DNA of 33,353 nucleotides from a virus. Lineage: Duplodnaviria > Heunggongvirae > Uroviricota > Caudoviricetes. The DNA lies in IMG/VR virus record IMGVR_UViG_2874951433_000004. One strand, given 5' to 3'. Both the position numbers and the translations under genes were made by a program. This document shows positions 22,001-23,029 of the stretch, piece by piece. Position 1 is the stretch's first letter. Every line of letters begins with the position of its first letter. The notes under the pieces are model-generated. The model saw nothing but the letters and a program-made list of their open reading frames with translations. It did not search any database and was not told the DNA's origin.

Positions 22001-22088
22001 GGTTTATGACCTCGGGAAAAAAGCGGCCGCGGACTTTATGCAACAGCAGGCCCGTGATGGTGGCCGGTTAAGTGGAGCATACCGGTAA
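19046..22088 (+). pseudogene. H: lambda H-like tail tape measure protein, interrupted by a frameshift near 20066-20090
   Basis: Two overlapping ORFs in different frames (19016..20236 and 20028..22088) together span an H-like protein; C-terminus matches lambda H (...NNDGTNGQIGPAALK.VYD...); probable start ATG 19046. Confidence 0.6.
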
Positions 22089-23029
22089 TGGAGACGTTTC
22101 ACTGGAAAGTGCGCCCGGATATGAATGTGGTATCAGAGCCGAAAGTGGTGACAGTGAAGCTGGGCGATGGTTATGAACAGCGTCGTGCGGCGGGACTGAA
22201 TAACCAGTTGTCGACTTACAGCGTGACGATACGTGTTCGTAAAGGTGAACACCCATCTTTAAAAGCCTTTCTGGAACGGCACGGTGGCGTCCGCGCATTT
22301 CAGTGGACGCCACCTTATGACTGGAAACTGATGCAGGATATCCGGCAGGAAACACTGAATGAATGCACCCGTGCGGAGCAGTCAGCCCGGGTGGAGCTCT
22401 GGGAAATCGATCTGACAGAGGTCGGTGGTGAGCGTTATTTTTTCTGTAATGAGCAGAACGAAAAAGGTGAGCCGGTCACCTGGCAGGGGCGGCAGTATCA
22501 GGCATACCCCATTCAGGGGTCGGGGTTTGAACTGAACGGCAGGGGCTGTGCTGCCCGTCCGACACTGACGGTCTCTAACCTGCACGGCATGGTCACCGGG
22601 ATGGCGGAAGATCTGCAGAGTCTGGTCGGCGGAACGGTGGTCCGGCGTAAGGTTTACGCCCGTTTTCTGGATGCGGTGAACTTCGTCAACGGAAACAGCG
22701 ACGCCGATCCGGAACAGGAGGTGATCAGCCGCTGGCGCATCGAGCAGTGCAGCGAACTGAGCGCGGTCAGTGCCTCTTTTGTGCTGGCCACACCAACGGA
22801 GACGGATGGCGCGGTTTTCCCGGGGCGTATCATGCTGGCGAATACCTGTATGTGGACTTACCGTTCTGATGAGTGTGGTTACACGGGCAGGGCAGTGGCT
22901 GACGAGTTCGACAAACCAACAACGGATATCCGGAAGGACAAATGCAGCAAGTGTATGCGCGGGTGTGAGTTGCGCAACAATACCGGTAATTTCGGCGGTT
23001 TCCTTTCCATCAATAAACTTTCTCAGTAA
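22088..23029 (+). CDS. in-frame fusion of lambda M-like (N-terminal about 80 aa) and L-like (full length) minor tail proteins
   Basis: ORF track 313 aa: N-terminus resembles lambda M (…FRWKV…GDGY…TYSVT…WTPPY.W); from ...LMQDIRQETLNECTRAEQ onward it is lambda L-like; the M C-terminus and M/L intergenic region are absent. Confidence 0.65.
   Translation: METFHWKVRPDMNVVSEPKVVTVKLGDGYEQRRAAGLNNQLSTYSVTIRVRKGEHPSLKAFLERHGGVRAFQWTPPYDWKLMQDIRQETLNECTRAEQSARVELWEIDLTEVGGERYFFCNEQNEKGEPVTWQGRQYQAYPIQGSGFELNGRGCAARPTLTVSNLHGMVTGMAEDLQSLVGGTVVRRKVYARFLDAVNFVNGNSDADPEQEVISRWRIEQCSELSAVSASFVLATPTETDGAVFPGRIMLANTCMWTYRSDECGYTGRAVADEFDKPTTDIRKDKCSKCMRGCELRNNTGNFGGFLSINKLSQ

Follow-up and report, generated by a model that had tools for sequence, protein, structure and literature searches.

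The open reading frame at positions 22088..23029 (+) of the window, by which is meant the entire 33,353-nucleotide stretch of DNA analyzed here (IMG/VR virus record IMGVR_UViG_2874951433_000004), begins in the manner of the λ tail gene M and continues as a full-length L. The question raised by this locus is whether the encoded protein, referred to here as M'-L, is a natural and functional fusion or the outcome of a small deletion in a decaying tail module. The evidence described below indicates that M'-L is very probably a deletion-generated relic of prophage decay in a cryptic, ipaH-carrying prophage of Shigella flexneri. It is not a new kind of tail protein; it is a product of ordinary prophage decay.

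Composition and origin of the chimeric reading frame

The M'-L reading frame starts with an ATG and comprises 313 codons plus a stop codon, corresponding to a 35-kDa protein. It is composed of codons 1-80 of the tail-tip gene M, which encodes the distal tail protein (22088..22327, +), a single new leucine codon, CTG, at position 81 (22328-22330, +), and the complete coding sequence of L, with 232 codons plus a stop codon (22331..23029, +). The M portion, hereafter M', lacks the C-terminal 29 codons. Residues 1-83 of M'-L align with residues 1-83 of the 109 residues of λ gpM (PDB 8iyk_M) with an E-value of 7e-26. Residues 82-313 align without gaps, from end to end, with residues 1-232 of λ gpL (8iyk_L), with an E-value of 2e-143 and an identity of 90%. 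In the Pfam comparison the Phage_min_tail profile is matched only over positions 1-82 of 108, such that the M side is cut short, and the Phage_tail_L profile is matched completely (1-206 of 206, E-value of 4e-96). By both the profile and the gpM alignment, M'-L falls short of a full-length member of PF05939 (Phage_min_tail/gpM). With respect to PF05100 (Phage_tail_L/gpL), the L portion is full length and its conserved cysteines are in place. Indeed, all of the cysteines of the C-terminal iron-binding (iron-sulfur) domain, in the pattern ...TC.WTYR.DECGY...DKCSKC..GC..., are kept relative to 8iyk_L. L is, however, probably no longer produced as a separate 232-residue protein from its own start, as its ATG at 22331 lies inside the 313-codon reading frame. 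The exact protein has already been deposited as ABF04034.1 and ABF04816.1 under the description "minor tail protein [Shigella flexneri 5 str. 8401]".

Among intact relatives, the nearest is found as a prophage in Escherichia coli FDAARGOS_944; it is 99.3% identical over the region and carries separate genes for M (109 residues) and L (232 residues). Alignment of the window with this prophage displays a single clean gap of 86 bp. When the ends were matched explicitly, the loss of 86 bp was found to be flanked by a 3-nt microhomology (left end, AAC|CGATCAGG; right end, GTGAAC|TGATGCAGG); the AAC on which the deletion closed is located at 22326..22328 (+). A repeat search with a seed of 6 revealed no longer exact direct repeat at the deletion ends, and the similarity of these ends beyond the AAC is gapped and imperfect only. 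The 26-mer spanning the junction is TATGACTGGAAACTGATGCAGGATAT, and the corresponding peptide is ...WTPPYDWKLMQDIR....

In both the FDAARGOS_944 relative and λ, the stop codon of M overlaps the start codon of L by 1 nt in the sequence TGATG. The deletion removed M codons 81-109, or 29 codons, together with the M stop codon. Leu 81 is derived from the last base of M codon 109 and the TG of the M stop codon, and the ATG of L follows directly at 22331. Given the 1-nt overlap, M and L are read in different frames, and because 86 nt equals 3n+2, the deletion places L in frame with M. The chance prior for an in-frame outcome is approximately 1 in 3, and therefore the in-frame junction is in itself no evidence of selection. 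A Shine-Dalgarno-like stretch 5' of the L start, GGTGGTGA, lies inside the deleted segment and is gone from the window.

These results bear on a prior, sequence-only reading of the locus, which had proposed that a small deletion joined the beginning of M in frame to a full-length L. The 8iyk_M, 8iyk_L, and Pfam matches confirm the composition of the reading frame, the arithmetic of the frames accounts for the in-frame junction, and the clean 86-bp gap relative to intact relatives establishes the deletion. The estimate that roughly the last 30 codons of M are absent was sound with regard to the loss, the exact figure being 29 codons and the stop. The same reading had also listed an M/L intergenic region among the missing parts, and on this point it was mistaken, for none exists in this lineage or in λ.

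The segment of M that was lost is conserved. In an alignment of 11 intact homologues, it contains the near-invariant positions V84, C86, K88, W89, V93, V98, and F104-V108, and 27% of the small M domain is missing from the fusion. The 109 residues of gpM are ordered without exception in the λ virion, where they form a β-sandwich with the fold of the gpV N-domain; the tube-to-tip ring is built from six copies of gpM, as against three copies of gpL (PMC10721106, PMC11101478, PMC12617516). With about a quarter of a single-domain β-sandwich gone and the remainder tied 1:1 to L, M' would be unable to form the distal tail ring, and a covalent 1:1 fusion would appear incompatible with the 6:3 stoichiometry of gpM to gpL. 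Note that these statements on folding and assembly are based on the published cryo-EM descriptions and not on a model of our own; an AlphaFold2 calculation on intact M with a 12-sequence alignment gave a mean pLDDT of 34.

Lesions and module loss in the surrounding prophage

The genes in the window follow the order H-M-L-K-I-J. The tape-measure gene H (19046..22088, +), whose stop codon overlaps the start codon of M', is inactivated by the insertion of one extra T at position 20082, and removal of this base restores a reading frame of 1013 residues that spans 19046..22088. The window has no genes for lysis, terminase, portal, or capsid functions; elements of the IS3 and IS110 families are found in their place. 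The IS110-family transposase (14321..15517, -) is positioned between Q (12442-13137) and FI (15781-16182). The cargo gene ipaH, which encodes an effector with NEL E3-ligase activity (30755..32505, -), shows a 1-nt deletion at nucleotide 231 (about 32276) relative to strain 8401, which leads to a stop at codon 86; this represents either a pseudogene in S. flexneri NCTC 9728 or a homopolymer sequencing error. In other individual strains, private 1-bp indels occur in U, I, and J; together with the ipaH lesion of this strain, they indicate that decay continues.

The locus thus displays what is looked for in a pseudogene of a cryptic prophage, namely lesions relative to intact homologues and the loss of essential modules: the 86-bp deletion, the extra T in H, and the genes replaced by IS elements. 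The sequence-only reading had taken the fusion and a frameshifted H as signs that the tail module is decaying. The restored H frame bears out the frameshift, and the missing head and lysis genes, the IS elements, and the private indels in U, I, and J elsewhere extend the case for decay. To be weighed against it are the M'-L reading frame, which is open across all 313 codons, the undamaged state of L, K, I, and J in the window, and the fact that the deletion is in frame.

Several other features of the region were observed. Positions 1-9600 of the window have no close match in the phage collection. They contain a 656-residue reading frame in which a tape-measure domain, TMP_3, is recognized (6785-8755), as well as a Dit_like reading frame (8852-9625), and represent another tail-like module, unrelated to the lambdoid remnant and located 5' of it. 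Positions 9616-10685 are 98.8% identical to the integrase region of phage 21 and contain no long reading frame, so the integrase region is probably disrupted; an IS3-family element (10732-11888, -) lies just beyond it. In two of the loci from other genomes (L003 and L011), an identical 1-nt deletion at locus position about 14388 divides J into segments of 721 and 429 residues. These two loci belong to different SNP lineages, and the deletion is either recurrent or a sequencing artefact.

Distribution of the junction and the two copies in Shigella flexneri

The chromosome of S. flexneri NCTC 9728 (CP026799.1), a strain of serotype 5a (PMC9455713), matches the window at 100% identity. The exact 313-residue protein is found on 38 contigs in 75 blocks of the sequence collection, and the junction is identical in 10 of the 10 loci that were fetched. 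Two M'-L loci are present per genome in strains 8401, NCTC 9728, and M90T (CP037923). Those of type A keep portal, protease, and capsid genes, and those of type B, to which the window belongs, have an IS110-family transposase at that place; both types end with the ipaH effector gene. The sequence-only reading had suggested a check of whether the fusion is specific to one strain. It is not, being common to several S. flexneri genomes and to two paralogous remnants within each.

The module that extends from the tail genes to ipaH in the window (16987..31750, +), encompassing the middle of Z, U, V, G, T, H, M'-L, K, I, J, lom, stf, tfa, and the 3' part of ipaH, occurs also in the second remnant of the same genome (L008) with an overall identity of 99.5%. 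Two other pairs of loci, L004/L005 and L009/L010, share it as well. From V to lom, a distance of ∼11 kb, there are 0 substitutions between the type A and type B paralogs of five genomes (both or matching loci read). Over the same interval, the lineage represented by L003 and L012 differs from the group formed by 8401, M90T, and NCTC 9728 at about 15-23 sites. The five genomes of the latter group have the extra T in H at type A and type B loci alike, whereas the type A loci L003 and L012 lack it and contain an intact H (1013 residues) along with the M'-L fusion. It follows that the M'-L deletion predates the frameshift in H. Since the paralogs are identical to one another, share the inactivating insertion in H, and differ from the orthologues elsewhere, the second copy arose by intragenomic recombination and not by infection. 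Two copies per genome are thus no sign of an infectious phage bearing the fusion.

The M'-L protein is invariant in every copy read, and the only substitution between lineages is synonymous. Neighboring genes show 2-5 changes per gene between the Shigella lineages. These substitutions are far too few for selection on M'-L to be measurable. In the window, the end of Z and U (17120-17497) contains 51 substitutions and a 3-bp indel that are unique to the type B locus of this strain in comparison with nine other loci; this cluster of changes has the appearance of a short patch acquired from a different prophage by recombination.

A functional relative carrying the fusion was sought in nucleotide and protein collections. 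No match spanning the junction was observed in 50,697 phage records, and the junction was likewise absent from 5,426 complete E. coli genomes, from the GTDB species representatives (searched with two patterns), and from metagenome contigs. The 14 complete E. coli genomes that cover the query all do so in two pieces, with an additional 85-97 bp between them. In IMG/VR, the single match to the junction is the prophage of the window itself. A HMMER scan of 1.84 billion representatives yielded 2,767 hits, of which the best 150 were used and the long ones among them examined. No natural two-domain protein containing both M and L was found among these best 150 of 2,767, with the exception of a 134-residue fragment having the same junction. 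When a junction-centered query was run against 5.8 billion clusters, this fragment alone crossed the junction. The sequence-only reading had allowed for a natural fused variant in related functional phages; such phages were found neither in the phage, E. coli, GTDB, and metagenome collections nor in the protein searches. The M plus L architecture is seen only in this allele and not in independent, otherwise intact genomes.

Some homologues of L with N-terminal extensions (P0101, P0112, P0146, P0160, and P0085) were considered as M-L fusions and rejected: their extensions give no M-like Pfam match and are repetitive or unrelated in appearance. Four further proteins from public genomes (P0016, P0017, P0018, and P0026) consist of fragments of capsid E, terminase A, or portal proteins joined directly to the whole of L. 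In decayed lambdoid prophages, large deletions that are in frame and have one end at or close to L appear to be a recurrent event.

A 514-bp contig (L013; JBHEAP010000127.1 of GCA_053000525.1), from a draft genome labeled E. coli and encoding protein P0036, has the identical junction on a second haplotype, with variants of the mEp460 type on both sides, starting ∼14 nt downstream and ∼80 nt upstream of the junction. Relative to mEp460, the contig shows an in-frame deletion of 96 bp with a microhomology of 1 nt only. An intact haplotype with mEp460-type M and L that also has the AAC-TGATG boundary, and in which the 86-bp deletion could equally have produced the L013 sequence, was looked for but not found; a match in ETEC1730 has a different type of M and demonstrates that the L start is a mosaic boundary. 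Indeed, in intact genomes three M 3' ends adjoin two L 5' types at the start of L (TGATGCAGGATAT), which is thus a natural mosaic boundary. The deletion arose more than once, or else a single deletion was carried between haplotypes by recombination. Because the L start is such a boundary, recombination would be the favored alternative. Were the junction in L013 of independent origin, a hot spot or selection might be suspected. It is, however, very doubtful that its occurrence on two haplotypes reflects a sequence-directed, recurrent deletion or the positive retention of M'-L, for example as a dominant-negative blocker of the tail tips of superinfecting lambdoid phages.

Explanations for the fusion and comparison with known systems

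In the scheme that best accounts for the data, the ancestor of the ipaH-carrying lambdoid prophage of S. flexneri would have undergone an 86-bp deletion, closing on AAC, that removed M residues 81-109 and the stop codon to give M(1-80)-Leu-L(1-232). L, although itself intact, would then be produced solely as the C-terminal part of the fusion or by initiation at a start codon devoid of its ribosome-binding stretch. Homologous recombination or gene conversion, extending from the middle of Z to the conserved 3' part of ipaH, would subsequently have placed a copy of the fused allele in a second prophage resident in the genome. Later drift would have brought further lesions, including the extra T in H, IS insertions, and, in U, I, J, and ipaH, indels that are specific to individual strains. 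It is plausibly as a vehicle for lom and ipaH, rather than as a phage, that the element has survived.

A different view would be that M'-L is a natural, functional fusion of the distal tail protein and the hub, belonging to a viable phage that lysogenized S. flexneri twice. Such a phage would explain an undamaged reading frame with its junction in frame and its L complete, two prophages with differing head modules, an adjoining H that is still intact in L003 and L012, and a junction that is seen on a second haplotype as well. It is nonetheless very unlikely to have existed: no carrier is found in the phage records, E. coli genomes, or metagenome contigs, no comparable two-domain protein occurs in the best 150 of the 2,767 representative hits, the 29 missing residues are conserved among intact M proteins, and a 1:1 product would not satisfy a 6:3 requirement for M and L. 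Moreover, the copies share the H frameshift and are identical over 11 kb, unlike their orthologues in another lineage, which points to duplication within the genome.

It is also conceivable, although improbable, that the host benefits from the retained product, either because M'-L acts as a dominant negative against superinfecting lambdoid phages or because an open frame is kept for downstream translation. The former role would suit a defective M attached to an entire L domain that is able to take part in tip complexes, the reading frame is intact and its protein invariant in all copies while neighboring genes gather frameshifts, and the junction recurs on the second haplotype. One synonymous change in 313 codons is too little to reveal constraint, however, and K, lom, G, and T are just as unchanged. 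The distribution is narrow, being limited to S. flexneri and one contig, and late-gene expression would be unlikely in a prophage that lacks an inducible regulatory circuit. That the missing 86 bp were simply dropped in sequencing or assembly can be given almost no credence. Repeated prophage modules are prone to assembly errors, but nothing specific speaks for one here: at least seven assemblies produced independently by different groups (among them 8401, two of M90T, NCTC 9728, an NCTC long-read record, and a draft) contain the identical junction, and the exact protein occurs on those 38 contigs and in 75 blocks.

As a relic of decay, the M'-L deletion provides a clean, datable marker for the ipaH prophage remnants of S. 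flexneri. The names under which the protein has been deposited, "minor tail protein" or "phage minor tail protein L", are better read as denoting a chimeric pseudogene. The two loci furthermore constitute a clear case of concerted evolution by gene conversion between resident prophage remnants, which bears on how ipaH-carrying elements are maintained and reshuffled.

The reference system for M'-L is that of λ gpM, the distal tail protein, and gpL, the tail-tip hub with a 4Fe-4S domain (PDB 8IYK/8K35). Residues 1-80 of M'-L are homologous to gpM 1-80, and the H-M-L-K-I-J order of λ is that of the window. In λ and in every intact relative examined, however, M (109 residues) and L (232 residues) are two genes in separate frames, whereas in the window M is devoid of residues 81-109 and joined covalently to L. 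Lambdoid phages and prophages of the mEp460, cdtI, and FDAARGOS_944 types are 91-99% identical in nucleotide sequence on either side of the junction; the FDAARGOS_944 type keeps 86 bp, and the mEp460 type 96 bp, that are absent from the window. The closest parallels in condition are the defective, ipaH-carrying lambdoid remnants of Shigella and EIEC, which resemble the window in their IS insertions, their frameshifts, and their lost head and lysis modules. In these remnants, lom and ipaH are kept near the tail-fiber genes, as they are in the window, where ipaH itself is frameshifted, and paralogous prophages are homogenized by recombination, as in the genome from which the window is derived. 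From cryptic-prophage decay in general, M'-L differs in no kind, and analogous chimeras of capsid, terminase, or portal sequences with L are found elsewhere.
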